A model generated the notes under the pieces. That model did no database searches, was not told the origin of the DNA, and was given only the letters and a program-made list of their open reading frames with translations. Of a DNA stretch of 64,000 nucleotides, positions 2,189 to 62,443 are shown one piece after another. The DNA comes from Escherichia phage ECML-123-2. The translations under genes and the position numbers were made by a program. The number at the start of each line of letters is the position of its first letter. Positions within the stretch are counted from its first letter, which is position 1. The DNA lies in sequence record OL631480, one strand, 5' to 3'.

Positions 2189-2392
2189 TTAATTCATATT
2201 ACGTTTAATAACTTCGGCAACTTCTAGTAGTTCATCTTTAGTTGCGGTATCGGATTGAATTTTATCTCTAATATCCTTAAAGCGGTTTTTAAATTCTTCG
2301 GCTTCTCCCATATCGAAAAAGCGTTGAATGATTCTATATTCTCGATGAACTGCTTTATCAAAAAGTTCTAAATTTACTTTATATGATTTCAT
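2189..2392 (-). CDS. small hypothetical protein at the rIIA.1 position
   Basis: 67-aa ORF with ATG start, SD gaggat upstream, early promoter just upstream. Confidence 0.6.
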
Positions 2393-2417: not shown

Positions 2418-2447
2418 ATTATACCACATCCTTGTGGTAAAGTAAAC
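2418..2447 (-). promoter_or_regulatory. T4-type early promoter (minus strand: GTTTAC, 18 bp, TATAAT)
   Basis: minus-strand reading GTTTACtttaccacaaggatgtggTATAAT, about 25 bp upstream of the rIIA.1 start. Confidence 0.5.
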
Positions 2448-4264
2448 TACTGGCTCATCCATTCTTTACGAAGGTCAGCATTATCTCCCATGAGCATTTC
2501 AAAAAGCTCTTTCCAGTTCTCAGGAAGTTTAACAACATCATATACTGGGTTTTGAATCATCTCACGATATTCAGATTTTTCCAAAGAGCCAAGTCCTTTA
2601 ATATAACGGATGCTATGTTTAGGTAGAGCATCTTTGGCACTCTCATATTCAGCGACTGTATAAAACCATTCTTGTTTTTTACCGACCTGAGCGATGATTA
2701 CAGGAGTTTTGACAAAGCGAATTCGTCCTTGCTCAAACAATTCTGGCCAATTACTAAAAAACCCGAGCAGAGAAGGATAAATGCTTCCTAGACCATCATG
2801 GTCAGCATCGGTCATAATAGCAATATTATGATAATTCAAGTTTTCAGCTTTTTCACCAAGAACTAATCCAGTGATTGCGCAAATATCAAACAGTTCTTTG
2901 TTTTTAAGCATGTCAGCATATGACATACCCCAACTGTTGAGAACTTTACCACGTAATGGATAACCACCGTGAAGTTCTTTATCACGAACATCAATAAGAT
3001 ATCCGATAGCCGAATCACCCTCAGTCAAGAAAAGAGTAGTGTCAGCATCTTTACCACAAAGATTCGCTTTGATATGTTTATGAACCTTAGCTTTAGAAGC
3101 CTTTTTAGCTGCTTTAGTTTCTGCTGCTTTTTCTGCCGCCAATTTACGAGCCAAAGCAGCTTCAATAATCGGCATTAGAATTGCTTCATTATTTAGAATA
3201 GCACGTGAAATCTTTTTAGCATCAAGCTGAATATGACTACGGATTTCACCAAATGGAGAAGTCAAACGCTCTTTAGTTTGAGAATCAAATCGCATGTTTT
3301 TCATATCACGAACAAACATAACGATAGTCAAACATTCTTTAACACGTGCTTTAGTTACATCAATTTTGAACTTACGTTTGATTTGTGGAATAAGGTCTTC
3401 ACAAATATCATCCATAACACAGTCAATGTGATGGCCACCATTCTTAGTATGAATGTTATTAACGTATGTTAATTGACGAAAACCATCCGGTGAACGACCA
3501 ACCGCAATAGAACAATTTTCTTGTTCTTGAACAATAGCATGCTCATCATATTGGCGTGCATATTTCTTAAAATTGCCCTGAACCTTTTTACCATTAAAGG
3601 TAAATTGAATATCAGGATAAACTACTGCGAGTGTCTGGAGACGGTCCAGTGTAATGTCAAGATAAACCTGAGACAGCTCATTAGTTTCAAATGACATAAA
3701 ATCAGGAATGAAAGTAACACGAGTTCCTTTCCATTTTCCAGGAATATCTTCCCATGATTTATTTTCCATGCCATTTGAACAACGAACTACAATATTATTT
3801 TGACCATCACCAGTTTCACCGACAAACATCACAGAAAAAATGTTTGTCAAACTAGAACCAACACCATTCATACCGCCAGTGACACGTTCTTTATCATCAC
3901 CAAAGTTACCACCTGCTTTTGGAATAGTCCATGCAGCAACTGGACCAGGAATTTCTTCACCGGTAGGTGTTTTAACCATCGCTTGTGGAATACCGCGACC
4001 GTTATCTTCAACTGTTACCTGATTATTTTTAATGGTAACATTAATTTTATTTGCGAATTTAAACTTAGTACGAATACCTTCATCTACTGAGTTATCGATA
4101 ATTTCATCAATAAGCTTAACAAGACCAGGTACATACTGAACACTTTCCCATTTACCAAACAGAAAGCGCTCATGCATTTCATTAGCAGAAGAGCCAATAT
4201 ACATGCCGCTACGCTTTTTGATATGTTCAATATCGCTCAGAATTTTAATTTCATTCTTAATCAT
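2447..4264 (-). CDS. 39: DNA topoisomerase II large subunit, genes 39 and 60 fused in one ORF
   Basis: ORF starts MIKNEIKILSDIEHIKKRSGMYIGS (GHKL ATPase, GyrB-like); about 605 aa is roughly T4 gp39 plus gp60; track start is GTG, first ATG at 4264. Confidence 0.92.
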   Translation of the reverse strand: MIKNEIKILSDIEHIKKRSGMYIGSSANEMHERFLFGKWESVQYVPGLVKLIDEIIDNSVDEGIRTKFKFANKINVTIKNNQVTVEDNGRGIPQAMVKTPTGEEIPGPVAAWTIPKAGGNFGDDKERVTGGMNGVGSSLTNIFSVMFVGETGDGQNNIVVRCSNGMENKSWEDIPGKWKGTRVTFIPDFMSFETNELSQVYLDITLDRLQTLAVVYPDIQFTFNGKKVQGNFKKYARQYDEHAIVQEQENCSIAVGRSPDGFRQLTYVNNIHTKNGGHHIDCVMDDICEDLIPQIKRKFKIDVTKARVKECLTIVMFVRDMKNMRFDSQTKERLTSPFGEIRSHIQLDAKKISRAILNNEAILMPIIEAALARKLAAEKAAETKAAKKASKAKVHKHIKANLCGKDADTTLFLTEGDSAIGYLIDVRDKELHGGYPLRGKVLNSWGMSYADMLKNKELFDICAITGLVLGEKAENLNYHNIAIMTDADHDGLGSIYPSLLGFFSNWPELFEQGRIRFVKTPVIIAQVGKKQEWFYTVAEYESAKDALPKHSIRYIKGLGSLEKSEYREMIQNPVYDVVKLPENWKELFEMLMGDNADLRKEWMSQ

Positions 4265-4291
4265 CACTTATCCTCGTTTGGTTTCGGGAAT

Positions 4292-15569: not shown

Positions 15570-15599
15570 TTTAACCAACAAGACTACTATACCATAGTC
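15570..15599 (-). promoter_or_regulatory. T4-type early promoter
   Basis: minus GTTTACaagctgacaagactatggTATAGT, with inverted repeat caagacta/tagtcttg around the -10. Confidence 0.5.
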
Positions 15600-15614
15600 T
15601 TGTCAGCTTGTAAA

Positions 15615-17042
15615 CTAAAATTTTAATTCATTTGCCAAAGCATCTAACTGAGCTCGAGTCGATTCGTTTCTTTGATAGCGATTCTGCTCAGCTTGTATCT
15701 GTTGTGAACCTGCTACCTCACTCACTTCAGTTGGAGTAGAATCTTGTTCAATTTCTACCCATTTCTGATTTCCTTTTTGAACACCCATCAAAAACTTATT
15801 CCATTTATTCTTATCACCATATCGTGATTTGATTTGCTTAATAAGTTGTTGTTCAGCAGCTGCTAACTCCTCGGTTTCAATGACCGCAAGCATAAAATCA
15901 GCTGTTGCTGGAAGACCGGCAGATTCTGCAATATCGCTCATGTTAACATCAGAAGAATCCCAAGCTTGTTTACCAACCTGTGCTGCAGTCCAAAGAACAG
16001 TTTCGGTTTCAACAGCAAGAGCACGTAATTCCTCTGCAATGGCTTTAACAGTTGTGTAACTATTTTCTGAGTAAACTCTAATGCGGCAAGATTTACAAAT
16101 ACCCAGATAGTCGACAATAATGATTGTTGGAACAAAATTCTTCTTGAGCTTTAATTCGTTTAAAAGCGATCGAAATGTATTAGCATCTGCTCCACCAGTA
16201 GGATACTGTTTAACTATTAAACGACCGAGAGTAGATTTCTCGCGCCATTTTTCCATTTTTCCTTTATACTCAGCGTAAGAAATATGCCCGTCATCAATGT
16301 CATCAAGAGAAACATCAAGCATATTAGCATCAATACGTTTAGCACAGACTTCTTCTGCCATTTCCATGGAGATATAAAGAACGTTATGACCAAGCTGTAA
16401 ATAATCCGCTGCTAATGAACAAAGTCCTAATGATTTACCAACGTTAACACCAGCCATTAAAACGTTCAGTGTTCCTGTCTCAGCTCCGCCTTTAGTAATT
16501 TTGTTTAGAATTCTGAGTTTAAATGGAACTTTACGAGCTTTATTCATATAAGATAGCCAGCGTGCTTCGTAGTCATCCATCCAATCATGACCAACGTAGC
16601 TATCAAATGAAATTGATAATGCTTGACGCATGATATCAGGAATAGCACCTACATCTGGCATTTTCTTATTTCGTTTTTCCGGAGGAAGCTCAGCATTAGT
16701 TTGAATTTCGATTATTTTAGACGTAGCATTAAACATCGCCCTTTGCTGAACATATTTTTCTGTTTCTTTTACTAACCAACTGTGGTCTTCTGGAGAATCG
16801 GCTAGTTTTGAAATAAGTGTTTTTACACCAGAATATTCTGTTTCAGTAAATGAACTATTTTCTAATGCAACATTTAACGCATTAATAGATGGAACGCTAT
16901 GATACTCATTAACATGAGATTTAATTAATTTGAACGTATTTTTAGCTGGACCACTTTCAAAATATTCTGAATCCATATATGGCCAAACTTTTGAAAAATA
17001 AGCTTGATCAAATATGAGATGAGAAAGAATAATTTCTACCAC
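15615..17042 (-). CDS. 41: replicative DNA helicase gp41 (DnaB family)
   Basis: 475 aa, Walker A GVNVGKS; same size as T4 gp41. Confidence 0.95.
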   Translation of the reverse strand: MVEIILSHLIFDQAYFSKVWPYMDSEYFESGPAKNTFKLIKSHVNEYHSVPSINALNVALENSSFTETEYSGVKTLISKLADSPEDHSWLVKETEKYVQQRAMFNATSKIIEIQTNAELPPEKRNKKMPDVGAIPDIMRQALSISFDSYVGHDWMDDYEARWLSYMNKARKVPFKLRILNKITKGGAETGTLNVLMAGVNVGKSLGLCSLAADYLQLGHNVLYISMEMAEEVCAKRIDANMLDVSLDDIDDGHISYAEYKGKMEKWREKSTLGRLIVKQYPTGGADANTFRSLLNELKLKKNFVPTIIIVDYLGICKSCRIRVYSENSYTTVKAIAEELRALAVETETVLWTAAQVGKQAWDSSDVNMSDIAESAGLPATADFMLAVIETEELAAAEQQLIKQIKSRYGDKNKWNKFLMGVQKGNQKWVEIEQDSTPTEVSEVAGSQQIQAEQNRYQRNESTRAQLDALANELKF

Positions 17043-21304: not shown

Positions 21305-21334
21305 ATAGTACCATAGAAGAACAGGGATGTAAAC
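21305..21334 (-). promoter_or_regulatory. T4-type early promoter (conserved family member)
   Basis: minus GTTTACatccctgttcttctatggTACTAT with conserved upstream ATTCCCTAAAAATTTTTTCACAAAACT. Confidence 0.5.
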
Positions 21335-35079: not shown

Positions 35080-35373
35080 TCAGCTATAACGATAACACTC
35101 GTTTGATTTACGTTTAGCAACTCGTTGAGAAGTATTATAATCAAAATCATCGTCAATGTAAACTGATTTTTTCAACTTTCTTACTTCACCGCGTAATTGA
35201 CGATTTAACTCATCTTTAACTTCTGAATCAATACCTTTCATTCTACGCCATTTATCTGAGCGAAAAATGTTTTCAACCATATCTTTATGACTTACACCAT
35301 CAGGAGCTTTACGCTTTCCGAAATAGTCATAATCACGAACTTTCAAGTCTTTACGACGATACGTTTTACCCAT
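35080..35373 (-). CDS. hypothetical basic protein (97 aa)
   Basis: ATG at 35373 with SD aaggaa; track start is GTG. Confidence 0.5.
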   Translation of the reverse strand: MGKTYRRKDLKVRDYDYFGKRKAPDGVSHKDMVENIFRSDKWRRMKGIDSEVKDELNRQLRGEVRKLKKSVYIDDDFDYNTSQRVAKRKSNECYRYS

Positions 35374-41159: not shown

Positions 41160-41549
41160 TTAATCCAAAATATTATTAGGCATTGGTTGAACACTCACAA
41201 GTTCTTTAAAGAACTCAGTAGAGTCAGGCAATTTAACCATTTCCGGAGCATGCTTACTGAATTTATGTTTACATTGACGGCATTTATATTCAAGCTCTGG
41301 TTTACGCCAGTTAATCAACTGAACTTGTTCAGTACCGCATTCAGGGCAATTAGGAACGTTTTTAGAAGCTCTTTCACGTCGTTCAACCATAGCCATAATA
41401 GCATCCCATGCTGGAGGTTTAAAATCTAAATCGTCGCAGCCGTGAATCTTTCCACGCATTTCCATATCATCTTCCTCACCAGCCATAATAATTTTAATTA
41501 AACTGGAATTACTTGAAGCTGCAATGTCTTCTAATAAACGCTTTTTCAT
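41160..41549 (-). CDS. hypothetical zinc-ribbon protein (nrdC.2 position)
   Basis: 129 aa with CPECGTEQ...CRQCKHKF. Confidence 0.55.
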
Positions 41550-42527: not shown

Positions 42528-43529
42528 TTACTTAATTAACTGTAAAGCTTGTTCAAGACGATCAAGACGATTAACGGATTCTTCCCAAATCTTTTTAGCC
42601 TGCTCATATTCTTTCTGCGCTTTATTAGAAATTTCTAGAACTTCTTTATAAGCTTTTTCTAGTGCAATAACTTCTGGACGAATTTCTACTGGTTCAGGCG
42701 AATCGTCAAGACATTCCATTAGTTCCTCAAGGGTAGTTTCTTCTTTAGGAGTATTCACAATTTCATCACATTTTTGTTGGTAAATTTCTTTATCAGTCGG
42801 TGAGTACGCACACTTTACTTCACGGAGACTAACTACAATTTTATATCCTTCCCAACCGCATATATTCTTAAAAGGATAAGTATGAATATTTTCTACTGTT
42901 TCCATACAAAGTAATGCGGTCTCTAACTGACGAGTTATATCGCTAGCAATTGAGAAAAATTTATTAATGTTCTTTTGATTAGCTTCTGGTGTAAAAAATT
43001 CATAATTCACAAAAATAGCTGCTTTATTTTTATCAAGCTCATATTCTTTTATGATAATCATATCAGAAGCCCAAGGATGGATTTGACGATAATCACCATA
43101 GCATAATTTAGAAGCTGATTTTAGAATTTGCTTCTTGAAAAGTCTAAAATTACTAATCCAACGACGAGTAAAAATATTCTCAGGGTCTTCTTTATTATTA
43201 AGATGATAAGAATTAACATCACCGAACCAACTGTATCCTACTACATCTTTAGTTCGTTTAATTTCTTTCCCAAATTTACCAAGAATATCTTGATTAACTA
43301 AATATGAAAGAAGACGAGAACCTTTAAAAGTTTCCTTAATATCATCTTTATATTCGCGACTAGAAATTTTATGAACTTCATGAATAAATTTGCTTGAAGA
43401 AACAATACTTGCATCAATATTATTGAGCCATTGATTGATAATGGAAATAACACTATTCTGACTAAACACAGGTTTAACTTTATCATCAATAACGCTATTG
43501 AATGATTTGATATATTCGTTACGAGTCAT
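42528..43529 (-). CDS. hypothetical protein with C-terminal coiled coil (paralog family member 2)
   Basis: 333 aa from ATG at 43529 (SD ggagattaat); motif FKKQILKSASKLCYG. Confidence 0.6.
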   Translation of the reverse strand: MTRNEYIKSFNSVIDDKVKPVFSQNSVISIINQWLNNIDASIVSSSKFIHEVHKISSREYKDDIKETFKGSRLLSYLVNQDILGKFGKEIKRTKDVVGYSWFGDVNSYHLNNKEDPENIFTRRWISNFRLFKKQILKSASKLCYGDYRQIHPWASDMIIIKEYELDKNKAAIFVNYEFFTPEANQKNINKFFSIASDITRQLETALLCMETVENIHTYPFKNICGWEGYKIVVSLREVKCAYSPTDKEIYQQKCDEIVNTPKEETTLEELMECLDDSPEPVEIRPEVIALEKAYKEVLEISNKAQKEYEQAKKIWEESVNRLDRLEQALQLIK

Positions 43530-43557: not shown

Positions 43558-43587
43558 ATTATACCACATCCTTGTGGCAAAGTAAAC
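43558..43587 (-). promoter_or_regulatory. T4-type early promoter, near-identical to the rIIA.1 promoter
   Basis: minus GTTTACtttgccacaaggatgtggTATAAT. Confidence 0.5.
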
Positions 43588-44606
43588 TAGTTTAGTGCAT
43601 TTAGTGCATTGTTCAGTTTAGAACGTTGCTTCGTAAGATTTTTGACTTTTTCTTGAGCTTTTTCTAGCATCTTTTCAGCTTCTAACACTTCATTAGTTGC
43701 TTTAACGAGTTCATCATCTACTGCCTTGATAGACTTCTCAATCGCATCCGCGTGCCATTTTTCAACAGGTTTAAGACTCGGATTTTCAACAGGAAGAAAA
43801 TTCACTTTATTGAATTTCCATGTATCTTTATTACCTGAACTATACATCCAAAATTTAGGATCGTTTGATGAGTAATTGGATAAATTTAAGATATCTTGCA
43901 CTTCCTGCTTTTTCTCTTGCGGGACTTCGTCCTTTCTCAAAAAATCGTATTTAAATGAAACGATCATATCAAGTTCATACGTTGTTGTATGTTCCCAATT
44001 TCGCTCAAAACGAGGTAAAATCTTAGACTGAACCGCGGCAACTACATCCATATACTTAAATGCTTCTGTCAACTGTGATTTAAGGCATTCACAAATTGAA
44101 AGAGAATTTTTTGTATTAGGTTTAAAGCTAATTCGTGCAGTTCTGTTATTTTCTTTTAATGGTCTTACTTCCATCTGAAGAGTATAACCATCAAATTTCA
44201 GATTCTTTAAGTTAATATCAGAACCTTTTAATCGACTAGCCGTCGACAAAATTTGCTTTAATTGTTTACGGAATAGAGCAATAAATCTCCACTCAATACG
44301 ATAATGATTTGGATTGAAAAATCCAGATGATAAATCGACCTTACTCTGACCAACACCTTGAACAAATAGAGGATTTTTATAATCAATAGTTTTACAGAAA
44401 TCAGTGAGCTGCTCACGAGCAGTCATTTGTGTAATATACCCCGCTTTACTAAAATGACGTAATAATTCACTGCTATTTAGATATTTAAAGTGAATAGCAC
44501 GATTAACTTTATCAGGGTCTAAATTATTTTCACACAAAAATGTCATAACATTACGAGTATCGCTGCCAGTACGAACCATATCTTCAATTTGAGAACGAGT
44601 TTTCAT
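43587..44606 (-). CDS. hypothetical protein with C-terminal coiled coil (paralog family member 3)
   Basis: 339 aa; motif FRKQLKQILSTASRLKG. Confidence 0.6.
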   Translation of the reverse strand: MKTRSQIEDMVRTGSDTRNVMTFLCENNLDPDKVNRAIHFKYLNSSELLRHFSKAGYITQMTAREQLTDFCKTIDYKNPLFVQGVGQSKVDLSSGFFNPNHYRIEWRFIALFRKQLKQILSTASRLKGSDINLKNLKFDGYTLQMEVRPLKENNRTARISFKPNTKNSLSICECLKSQLTEAFKYMDVVAAVQSKILPRFERNWEHTTTYELDMIVSFKYDFLRKDEVPQEKKQEVQDILNLSNYSSNDPKFWMYSSGNKDTWKFNKVNFLPVENPSLKPVEKWHADAIEKSIKAVDDELVKATNEVLEAEKMLEKAQEKVKNLTKQRSKLNNALNALN

Positions 44607-45975: not shown

Positions 45976-46503
45976 TTATGCGAGTACCGTCTTTAACCGT
46001 TCTTCAAACTTCCGAAGAGTATTTTGGCGTTCAGCTCTTTGCTTTTTGTAAGTTTCAATACGCTCTGAAATGAGAGTGTATCGTTCATTTACTGATTCTT
46101 TCATAAAATCAGGAATTTCACGAGAAGCTTTAATCTCGTCAAATTTATCAATAACAGCTTGCTCTTCAGCAATTAAGTTATCATACATTAAAATATCTTT
46201 CTTGATAAACTCAATATCTTCTTGAGTTACACGAGATAATTTAGATGCTTTATCCTTTTTGTACTGTTCGTTAGTATCACGAGACCAGTGTAATGTACGA
46301 TTTTTATTCGTATTTTTGTAAATTTCTACAATACCGATCTCATCGATAATAACGATCCAATTCCAACGGGATTTGTAAATTTGTCCTCCATCAACAGTGA
46401 TTTCACCTCCGATTGAGATGTCATTAAAGAACTTGCTTTGCGCTTCAGATTTAAATTTACCATCGTTGTAATTTACTAAGTTGAAAATATCTTTAGCGTT
46501 CAT
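45976..46503 (-). CDS. hypothetical protein
   Basis: 175-aa ORF with SD ggagga and early promoter. Confidence 0.6.
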   Translation of the reverse strand: MNAKDIFNLVNYNDGKFKSEAQSKFFNDISIGGEITVDGGQIYKSRWNWIVIIDEIGIVEIYKNTNKNRTLHWSRDTNEQYKKDKASKLSRVTQEDIEFIKKDILMYDNLIAEEQAVIDKFDEIKASREIPDFMKESVNERYTLISERIETYKKQRAERQNTLRKFEERLKTVLA

Positions 46504-46531
46504 TTTCTGTTCCTCCGTAGTTGATAGTTGT

Positions 46532-46561
46532 ATAGTACCACAGAGGAACAGTCTTGTAAAC
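46532..46561 (-). promoter_or_regulatory. T4-type early promoter
   Basis: minus GTTTACaagactgttcctctgtggTACTAT. Confidence 0.5.
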
Positions 46562-47970: not shown

Positions 47971-48000
47971 ATAGTACCATAAAGCTTTATGCTTGTAAAC
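47971..48000 (-). promoter_or_regulatory. T4-type early promoter (conserved family member)
   Basis: minus GTTTACaagcataaagctttatggTACTAT, inside the longer track ORF. Confidence 0.5.
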
Positions 48001-50612: not shown

Positions 50613-50747
50613 AATTACATACTCCTTTGAATAATATCAATAATGTTGTTCACCAGATTATAAGTAAACATTGGATAATTATATTGAATCATCACATACA
50701 CAACAAACAAAACTTTCATTCTCTTCTCCTTGGCAGTTGACAAGATT

Positions 50748-50777
50748 ACTATATCATAATCTTGTCAACTTGTAAAC
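50748..50777 (-). promoter_or_regulatory. T4-type early promoter with palindrome
   Basis: minus GTTTACaagttgacaagattatgaTATAGT inside inverted repeat gttgacaagatta/taatcttgtcaac. Confidence 0.45.
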
Positions 50778-51559: not shown

Positions 51560-51589
51560 ATAGTATCACAGCTCAAATTGAAAGTAAAC
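51560..51589 (-). promoter_or_regulatory. T4-type early promoter
   Basis: minus GTTTACtttcaatttgagctgtgaTACTAT. Confidence 0.5.
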
Positions 51590-55276: not shown

Positions 55277-55738
55277 TCATTGAGTTTTAATTACTGCTTT
55301 AGAAGCCTTTCCTGGTAAACGACGACTATTGATAATTGCCATCCTGCATTGAAGCGACGGGTCTTTGAACTTCGCATTAGGTTTACAAACTGTAAATCCA
55401 AGCCAAAGATTTCCATCTGTGATTTCTAAACGTCCAGGACGGTATTCAACCCCATCAATAAAATCCTCATCAATGTCAGGACGCGGAGGCATACTCAGGA
55501 ATTCATTAACTTCTAAAACATGGTCTTTTATTTTGTGGAATAATTCAAAAACATATGTCTCATCAATCTCCCGTTGAATTGCACGATCAAGAAGATGCTG
55601 AGAATATTTTAGATGAAACGATGAGACCCCTGCTGCTTTTGATGCCTCACGAATCTCATTGTTAATTTGACGAAACTCCGACTCAAAGTGACGACGAAGC
55701 TTATTTCGACGGATAAAAACTTCTGTGTTGATAGTCAT
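55277..55738 (-). CDS. regB: RegB site-specific endoribonuclease
   Basis: 153-aa basic ORF at the T4 regB position and size. Confidence 0.7.
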   Translation of the reverse strand: MTINTEVFIRRNKLRRHFESEFRQINNEIREASKAAGVSSFHLKYSQHLLDRAIQREIDETYVFELFHKIKDHVLEVNEFLSMPPRPDIDEDFIDGVEYRPGRLEITDGNLWLGFTVCKPNAKFKDPSLQCRMAIINSRRLPGKASKAVIKTQ

Positions 55739-55765
55739 GTTATTCTCCTCTTAACTGATAGAAAA

Positions 55766-55795
55766 ATTATACCACAGTCAAGAGGAAAAGTAAAC
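55766..55795 (-). promoter_or_regulatory. T4-type early promoter for regB
   Basis: minus GTTTACttttcctcttgactgtggTATAAT. Confidence 0.5.
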
Positions 55796-62413: not shown

Positions 62414-62443
62414 ATAGTACCATGGAAGAACAGGGATGTAAAC
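62414..62443 (-). promoter_or_regulatory. T4-type early promoter (conserved family member)
   Basis: minus GTTTACatccctgttcttccatggTACTAT with the same upstream element as 21305..21334. Confidence 0.5.

Follow-up and report, generated by a model that had tools for sequence, protein, structure and literature searches.

Early promoters of bacteriophage T4 have been described as belonging to the UP/-35/TGn/-10 type (PMC2988021). Repeated early-promoter cassettes, referred to as PeSLs, have been reported as substrates for recombination in T4-like genomes (PMC2839356, PMC4122927). At the RNA level, the T4 genes e, soc, 49 and I-TevI carry an inhibitory hairpin with a proximal promoter inside its 5' arm (PMC3014915). 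RegB cleaves early transcripts at intergenic GGAG/U motifs, and does so without S1 when the GGA is left unpaired and the base following it is constrained (PMC3014915).

Here, we analysed a 64,000-nucleotide stretch of Escherichia phage ECML-123-2 (OL631480; hereafter the window). The window belongs to a Tequatrovirus, shares ~99% identity with Shigella phage JK23 and Escherichia phage U115, and begins at rIIA, as the T4 map does. The pattern GTTTACTTT[A/G]CCACAAGGATGTGGTATAAT has exactly two matches in the window, both on the minus strand, and none in 100 dinucleotide shuffles of it. The first-pass annotation had described these matches as two almost identical early promoters with a palindrome, CCACA-AGGA-TGTGG, in the spacer. 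Both observations hold: the 30-mer occurs exactly twice (0/100 shuffles), the two spacers share 17 of 18 bases, and the palindrome is exact at either site. The two promoters (sites 1 and 2), their parts and the neighbouring genes are as follows.

2418-2447, minus strand: site 1, the A variant of the 30-mer (GTTTACTTTACCACAAGGATGTGGTATAAT; exact match, identical in T4), an early promoter 5' of rIIA.1/rIIA, between the gene 39 stop codon and rIIA.1
2442-2447, minus strand: -35 element GTTTAC of site 1 (sigma-70 hexamer TTTACT at 2441-2446); the G at 2447 is also the final base of the gene 39 stop codon TAG (2447-2449)
2433-2439, minus strand: left dyad arm TACCACA of site 1 (CCACA at 2433-2437), the family-specific part of the spacer
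2429-2432, minus strand: centre or loop AGGA of site 1
2422-2428, minus strand: right dyad arm TGTGGTA of site 1, made of the extended -10 TGTGG (2424-2428) and the first two bases of the -10
2418-2423, minus strand: -10 element TATAAT of site 1; transcription start predicted from the spacing at ~2411-2412
43558-43587, minus strand: site 2, the G variant of the 30-mer (GTTTACTTTGCCACAAGGATGTGGTATAAT; exact match, identical in T4), an early promoter 5' of nrdC.4, between the nrdC.5 stop codon and nrdC.4
43582-43587, minus strand: -35 element GTTTAC of site 2; G 43587 belongs to the nrdC.5 stop codon TAG (43587-43589) as well
43573-43579, minus strand: left dyad arm TGCCACA of site 2 (CCACA at 43573-43577); G 43578 stands opposite T 43563, a G.T pair (G.U in RNA)
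43569-43572, minus strand: loop AGGA of site 2
43562-43568, minus strand: right dyad arm TGTGGTA of site 2 (TGTGG at 43564-43568), the extended -10 and the start of the -10
43558-43563, minus strand: -10 element TATAAT of site 2; predicted transcription start at ~43551
2189-2392, minus strand: rIIA.1, an open reading frame of 67 aa (Pfam PF24210 T4_RIIA1, phrog_1683, unknown function)
42528-43529, minus strand: nrdC.4 homologue, 333 aa from the ATG at 43527-43529 (phrog_1435, unknown function)
2447-4267, minus strand: gene 39, topoisomerase large subunit, a single open reading frame of 606 aa

When the upstream stop codon is included, 31 of 32 bases are identical between the sites (TAGTTTAC...TATAAT). 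This identity ends exactly with the last base of the -10, and the flanks on both sides are unrelated. The dyad grows to 7-bp arms at site 1 (TACCACA/TGTGGTA), and at site 2 its sixth pair is a G.T. T4 carries both promoters letter for letter. The first gene downstream of site 1 is rIIA.1 (ATG at 2390-2392), and at both sites a Shine-Dalgarno sequence and the same-strand ATG of the downstream gene follow within ~30 nt. The products encoded at the two sites fall into families with no known function (PF24210, phrog_1435, DUF7235), and domain and family matches gave no DNA-binding domain for the neighbours rIIA.1, nrdC.4 and nrdC.5. In T4, gene 39, a single open reading frame in the window, is split into genes 39 and 60, with mobA, 60.1 and a 50-nt translational bypass between them. 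In the Klebsiella phage KP179, the rIIA.1 homologue is preceded by TTGCTTAAAGTTATAGTGATATAAT, which resembles a middle promoter with a MotA box rather than an early promoter (contig L284, 36313-36451).

Judged by their sequence, both sites are ordinary T4-type early promoters, an already catalogued kind of element, with predicted promoter activity and start sites. They combine TTTACT, a 17-bp spacer and TATAAT with a TG 5' of the -10, and each is the best sigma-70-like site of its own region (10/12, with TG). The earlier designation as early promoters is thus well founded, given the exact -35, TGn, -10 and 17-bp spacing and the identical copies in T4. Both sites also have the conserved A at -4 relative to the G, and the 25 nt upstream of each are the 3' ends of coding genes. 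A position weight matrix (PWM) built from 26 T4 early promoters reads GTTTAC(a/t)(a/t)..cc....TGTGgTATAAT. Since TGTGg is the class consensus at the position of the right palindrome arm, this arm is the family-wide extended -10, and what sets these promoters apart is the left arm, CCACA, alone. Host sigma-70 RNA polymerase would be expected to read both sites right after infection; site 1 would drive rIIA.1-rIIA and site 2 nrdC.4, each directly after the upstream stop codon. Our literature search found no published work naming these two promoters.

How unusual is the palindrome? Shuffled spacers of this composition contain a perfect dyad of at least 5 bp in ~7% of cases and one of at least 7 bp in ~0.2%. 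With ~40 promoters per genome, the 5-bp palindrome is therefore unremarkable, while the 7-bp form is mildly unusual. We rejected a general tendency of early promoters towards dyads within the spacer: among 136 distinct environmental promoters of the form GTTTAC-N15-TGGTATAAT, 10 had spacer dyads of at least 5 bp and 8.2 were expected (P = 0.3). Among T4 early promoters, complementarity at all five of these positions (5/5) is confined to the present family. The palindrome would arise where the class-wide TGTGGTA faces a complementary, family-specific TACCACA or TGCCACA.

Near-identical pairs of early promoters are common in these genomes. T4 has 38 GTTTAC-N18-TAnnnT sites on the early strand, and the mean pairwise spacer identity, out of 18 positions, is 6.6 +/- 2.5 in T4 and 7.0 +/- 2.6 in the window. 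Eight T4 pairs have at least 14/18 identical spacer bases, and five families account for 12 of the 38 promoters. In the window, 6 of 18 promoters have a partner at this threshold, forming the pairs 2447/43587, 21334/62443 and 15615/50777. KP179, a Jiaodavirus, follows the same pattern with two such families. A different kind of repetition is seen in T4 promoters with a TACTAT -10, which share near-identical upstream sequences (aaaaattttttcacaaaac) and 5' leaders (acaactatcaactactgatacggatttggagaataaaATG) and have very different spacers; here, the cassette is conserved except for its spacer. The window contains five promoters of this kind.

21305-21334, minus strand: early promoter with a TACTAT -10
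46532-46561, minus strand: early promoter with a TACTAT -10
47971-48000, minus strand: early promoter with a TACTAT -10
51560-51589, minus strand: early promoter with a TACTAT -10
62414-62443, minus strand: early promoter with a TACTAT -10

We also observed two promoter-like sites that overlap face to face, at 35112-35141 (plus strand) and 35134-35163 (minus strand), each reading into the -10 region of the other; T4 has the same facing arrangement at 41210/41261.

Copies of the module formed by sites 1 and 2 extend well beyond the window. There are two in the window itself and three each in T4, KP179 and Serratia phage CHI14. The third T4 member, GTTTACATACCACAAGGACCGTGGTACTAT, lies downstream of denB, outside the window. 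By position, it is orthologous to the KP179 copy downstream of denB, the two DenB proteins sharing 58% identity. The three copies in KP179 lie after gp43, before cef and after denB, and their identity is limited to the stretch from the UP region through the -10. In CHI14, the module follows gene 41; the T4 promoter at that position belongs to another family. The core of the spacer, CCACAAGGA(N)GTGG, is preserved base for base in several T4-like genera, an Acinetobacter phage and rV5-like phages, at non-orthologous sites. The spacer occurs in other Jiaodaviruses, in Karamvirus Pet-CM3-4, in CC31 (as CCACATGGATGTGG), in one further contig, in CHI14 and in Acinetobacter phage Ac42 (as CGTGG and AGTGG variants). 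In the rV5-like phages (Vequintavirus), TTGACAAAAGCCACAAGGATGTGGCATATT stands right after nrdD with a -35 of TTGACA and a -10 of CATATT, both differing from the T4 type (contigs L132, 1190-1220; L073, 3500-3530; L399; L400). In the rV5-like phage Mangalyan, homology stops right after GTGGCA; a different gene follows where the homology to rV5 ends. As the family members were collected by searching for the core, its invariance among them is partly a matter of ascertainment.

An exact 14-mer scan of IMG/VR gave mostly chance matches, with only 8 of 120 in a promoter context, and an IMG/VR pattern set one base off register, an unplanned negative control, yielded non-promoter chance matches only. 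In 185,579 bacterial species genomes, TTKAC-N4-CCACAAGGATGTGG had two hits, with ~9 expected by chance; a host promoter or operator counterpart was rejected, as both matches lie in unrelated metagenome-assembled genomes and none is enterobacterial. At the orthologous position after gene 39, 25 contigs with a gp39 of 69-82% identity have neither an early promoter nor rIIA.1, and close relatives are nearly identical throughout. Conservation of the palindrome in orthologous promoters is thus uninformative here, the close relatives being near-identical and the distant genera lacking a promoter at the rIIA.1 site. After the gp39 stop codon, contigs L136-L157 show a late-promoter-like TAAATA, a GC-rich hairpin and a conserved small open reading frame starting MSQIWVTLVDGSYGYMWGD (for example, L146, 11843-11900).

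These observations fit best with sites 1 and 2 being T4-type early promoters that represent two copies of one spread module, with a palindrome that is not the operator of a dimeric repressor. We consider this reading, on balance, probable. The module would be defined by the spacer (T/A)n-R-CCACAAGGA-N-GTGG, and copying or gene conversion between intergenic sites and between co-infecting phages would be the simplest cause of such families. Its spread would then be an instance of what has been called a mobile regulatory cassette, or PeSL, phenomenon. Should the dyad have a second role, this would most likely be that of a 7-bp RNA hairpin present only in read-through from the upstream gene.

A second type of symmetry was found at other early promoters, where, as the first-pass annotation had pointed out, inverted repeats bracket the -10. 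These repeats are perfect over 8 bp at the promoter at 15586-15615 and over 13 bp at 50748-50777. In this arrangement, the left arm is in the spacer and the right arm just 3' of the -10.

15578-15615, minus strand: early promoter after gene 41 with its bracket repeat, supported by covariation
15596-15603, minus strand: left arm ACAAGACT
15586-15591, minus strand: -10 element TATAGT
15578-15585, minus strand: right arm AGTCTTGT
50735-50777, minus strand: early promoter of the same family as 15586-15615 with its 13-bp bracket repeat, supported by covariation
50757-50769, minus strand: left arm AGTTGACAAGATT
50748-50753, minus strand: -10 element
50735-50747, minus strand: right arm AATCTTGTCAACT

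The predicted RNA folds of these two regions reach -18.9 kcal/mol (z -3.6; 15578-15615) and -21.2 kcal/mol (z -5.0; 50735-50777). Bracket repeats of at least 6 bp are present in 13 of 26 T4 early promoters, compared to 10-12% of controls, and repeats of at least 7 bp in 23%, compared to 2-3% of controls. We aligned eight such promoters from several genera (window 15578-15615 and 50735-50777; T4 20612 and 57990; contigs L136, L139, L143 and L144). In this alignment, 90% of cells are paired versus 68% in shuffles, both partners have changed in 10 of 13 pairs, and the observed covariation score is not reached by any of 500 shuffles. The arms differ between genera and yet covary, which argues for selection on base pairing rather than on a protein half-site, and indicates that the bracket repeats represent a selected pairing, either as an RNA hairpin in read-through transcripts or as a DNA hairpin. 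The counts of G.T and A.C in the helix (8 vs 5) are compatible with either strand. Compensatory change thus makes the bracket repeats a lead in their own right, pointing to an action through base pairing.

Two further promoters have a different type of predicted structure, in which the spacer and extended -10 pair with the downstream Shine-Dalgarno sequence. At 46532-46561, this fold reaches -25.5 kcal/mol (z -6.4; 46490-46561, minus strand), and the regB promoter at 55766-55795 shows the same pairing at -22.4 kcal/mol (z -4.7; 55724-55795, minus strand). At both promoters, masking would affect read-through transcripts only. A class-wide anti-Shine-Dalgarno role of early-promoter spacers was rejected: promoter-derived bases mask the Shine-Dalgarno sequence at 12 of 30 native sites, a share that swapped, shuffled or random upstream segments equal. 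Individually, the promoters at 46532 and 55766 still stand out.

The spacer of the family formed by sites 1 and 2 is conserved to an unusual degree. Between T4 and KP179, the spacers of this family match at 18/18 and 17/18 positions; the next best match is 14, and all others are at most 12. Convergence on an optimal consensus spacer was rejected: in a leave-out T4 spacer PWM, the family spacer without TGTGG scores -0.4 and -1.2, in the middle of the table. The core also persists in phages with other -35 and -10 elements, and at the site downstream of denB in T4 and KP179. In combination, these features resemble the outcome of purifying selection acting on the core, an outcome that simple copying would predict only with frequent lateral spread. 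The uniformity of the module would thus follow either from frequent lateral spread or from purifying selection on the core. Given the non-orthologous positions of the module and the breakpoints found at it, lateral spread is the more likely of the two, and spread by recombination appears to be the most likely cause of spacer conservation. We also considered that the core is kept for a special property of the promoter with RNA polymerase, such as its strength, supercoiling or the response to polymerase ADP-ribosylated by Alt or ModA, which would involve neither a separate factor nor RNA structure. The register of the core relative to the -10 is nearly constant in most copies, across various hosts and -35/-10 flavours. 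Moreover, T4 early promoters are reported to hold consensus information beyond the canonical elements, Alt stimulation varies among promoters with identical core elements (PMC2988021), and spacer sequence is known to affect promoter strength (PMC8695583). However, the family-specific part is unlike the spacer preferences of other early promoters, and the third T4 copy has its core shifted by one base relative to the -10, so that we find a pure polymerase effect improbable. Conserved across genera far beyond the norm, the core is a defined and mutable candidate for an additional cis function.

Two such functions concern the dyad directly. The first-pass annotation had suggested that the palindrome could be an operator for a dimeric regulator. 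On this reading, it would be a double-stranded DNA site through which a phage or host protein turns the two promoters off or on. T4 early transcription is a classic system, and since the mechanism of T4 early-promoter shut-off is still unknown (PMC2988021, PMC3014915), such an operator would have been of importance. The 7-bp arms of site 1, the even better DNA palindrome of the CC31 variant (ACCACAT-GG-ATGTGGT) and the strong conservation of the core across genera would all suit this function. The details of the sequence do not bear it out: the extended -10 consensus of the whole class supplies the right arm; the dyad centre, mostly 4 nt, measures 6 nt in the CGTGG and AGTGG variants and 7 nt in the T4 copy downstream of denB; DNA symmetry is broken by a G.T as the sixth pair of site 2 and most relatives; the KP179 denB copy has TGTGA without a compensating change; and covariation within the family is not significant. 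The genomic setting adds to these objections, with the element in only 2-3 of ~38 early promoters, no DNA-binding gene adjacent or linked to them, downstream genes that differ between phages and have nothing evident in common, and a motif essentially absent from the 185,579 bacterial species genomes. Autoregulation by the downstream product was likewise rejected, since no function is known for the downstream genes and they vary from phage to phage. T4 cytosines are glucosyl-hydroxymethylated, which makes C-rich half-sites poor major-groove targets, and the C-rich arms would be bulky in the major groove if modified in this way; to our knowledge, rV5-like phages do not carry a modification of the glucosyl-hydroxymethylcytosine type. 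Nor do we know of a CRP, NrdR, DnaA-box or lambda operator site that fits the dyad in spacing or sequence. We therefore regard an operator as highly improbable.

The variable loop length, with pairing kept, suits a hairpin better than a protein site. The dyad could be selected as the RNA hairpin UACCACA-AGGA-UGUGGUA in read-through from gene 39 or nrdC.5, as a candidate RegB-type substrate. Transcripts started at the promoter itself would lack such a hairpin; in read-through transcripts, it would label the upstream cistron on its 3' side, acting as an attenuator, as a barrier to decay or as a site of processing. At each of the two sites, its predicted energy is -8.2 kcal/mol (z about -3.5), a value matched by 0 of 200 shuffles. 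T4 site 1 has A-U as its sixth pair, site 2 as well as Jiaoda- and Karamvirus have G.U, and the rV5-like phages have G-C; the third T4 copy keeps seven pairs around a 7-nt loop at -8.0 kcal/mol. The GGA of the loop is invariant (as GGAU, GGAC or GGAA); at sites 1 and 2, the early intergenic sequence contains a GGAU whose GGA falls within the predicted loop and whose U sits in the closing pair. RegB is widespread in Tevenvirinae, site 2 with its tail passes a terminator-like scan, if weakly, and half of the T4 early promoters carry other hairpin-forming repeats, one family of which covaries strongly. Against this, an alignment of the 21-member family has 90.5% of cells paired, with three pairs invariant and one doubly changed, and 72 of 500 shuffles reach its covariation score; the helix is broken in the KP179 denB copy (-2.6 kcal/mol) without compensation; site 1 lacks a terminator-like tail; and the 3' context at both sites, GGAUGUGGUAU, is unlike the strong RegB consensus GGAGRAYARAA (PMC3014915). 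No Vequintavirus was among the RegB matches listed, in a search not aimed at rV5-likes, though these phages carry the core, and the invariance of the hairpin is in part a product of finding the family through its core. A search of Rfam returned no known RNA family at E <= 1. We consider a selected hairpin of this kind possible but rather unlikely. The broader proposal that CCACAAGGA(N)GTGG is dual-coded, serving as promoter DNA and either as a read-through hairpin that presents an unpaired GGA to a conserved RNA-processing factor such as RegB or as a DNA site for an early-promoter-binding protein, is one we put forward only tentatively, with a similarly low expectation. If true, the element would either uncouple the cistrons on its two sides or set the timing of a small group of early promoters, and would have been conserved across T4-like phages and captured by rV5-like phages. 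A spread early-promoter module remains our preferred reading of sites 1 and 2, and the conserved spacer core and the covarying bracket repeats are the two features that we believe deserve follow-up.

How does this locus compare to the described systems? With lambda OR/OL and the operators of the MerR family, sites 1 and 2 share a dyad located between the -35 and the -10. In contrast to these spacer operators, the half-site spacing is inconstant, no DNA-binding gene was found beside the promoters, and one arm is a recognition element of the polymerase itself; further, MerR-type promoters have 19-20-bp spacers, whereas the spacers here are 17 bp. With RegB sites, the two promoters share a GGAU in an early intergenic region with the GGA predicted to be unpaired; compared to strong RegB sites, they do not have the A-rich 3' consensus, and the motif is not a Shine-Dalgarno sequence. 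The arrangement of T4 e, soc, 49 and I-TevI, in which the hairpin forms only in read-through transcripts and the promoter lies within or upstream of the 5' arm, has a clear likeness at the promoters at 15586, 50748, 46532 and 55766. Those four T4 genes use late promoters, and their hairpins mask the ribosome binding site, whereas the hairpin of sites 1 and 2 is small, entirely upstream of the transcription start and away from the Shine-Dalgarno sequence.

The closest relationships are with T4 early promoters and with PeSL cassettes. The -35 GTTTAC, the 17-bp spacer, the TGn, the TATAAT and the placement on the early strand are shared with T4 early promoters, from which there is no essential difference: site 1 is preceded by coding sequence without an obvious A-tract UP element, and the spacer common to both sites is a family trait outside the class consensus. 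In published PeSLs, the promoter is directly preceded by the stem-loop, for which termination of transcription has been demonstrated (PMC2839356, PMC4122927). Sites 1 and 2 differ in that they have no terminating stem-loop upstream of the promoter; instead, their stem-loop is inside the spacer, and the extended -10 forms its 3' arm. What they have in common with PeSL cassettes is a repeated early-promoter module with a stem-loop, its presence at many intergenic sites, identity confined to the module and apparent recombination junctions, and the same module features characterise the PeSL-like early-promoter/stem-loop elements of the T-even IP loci.
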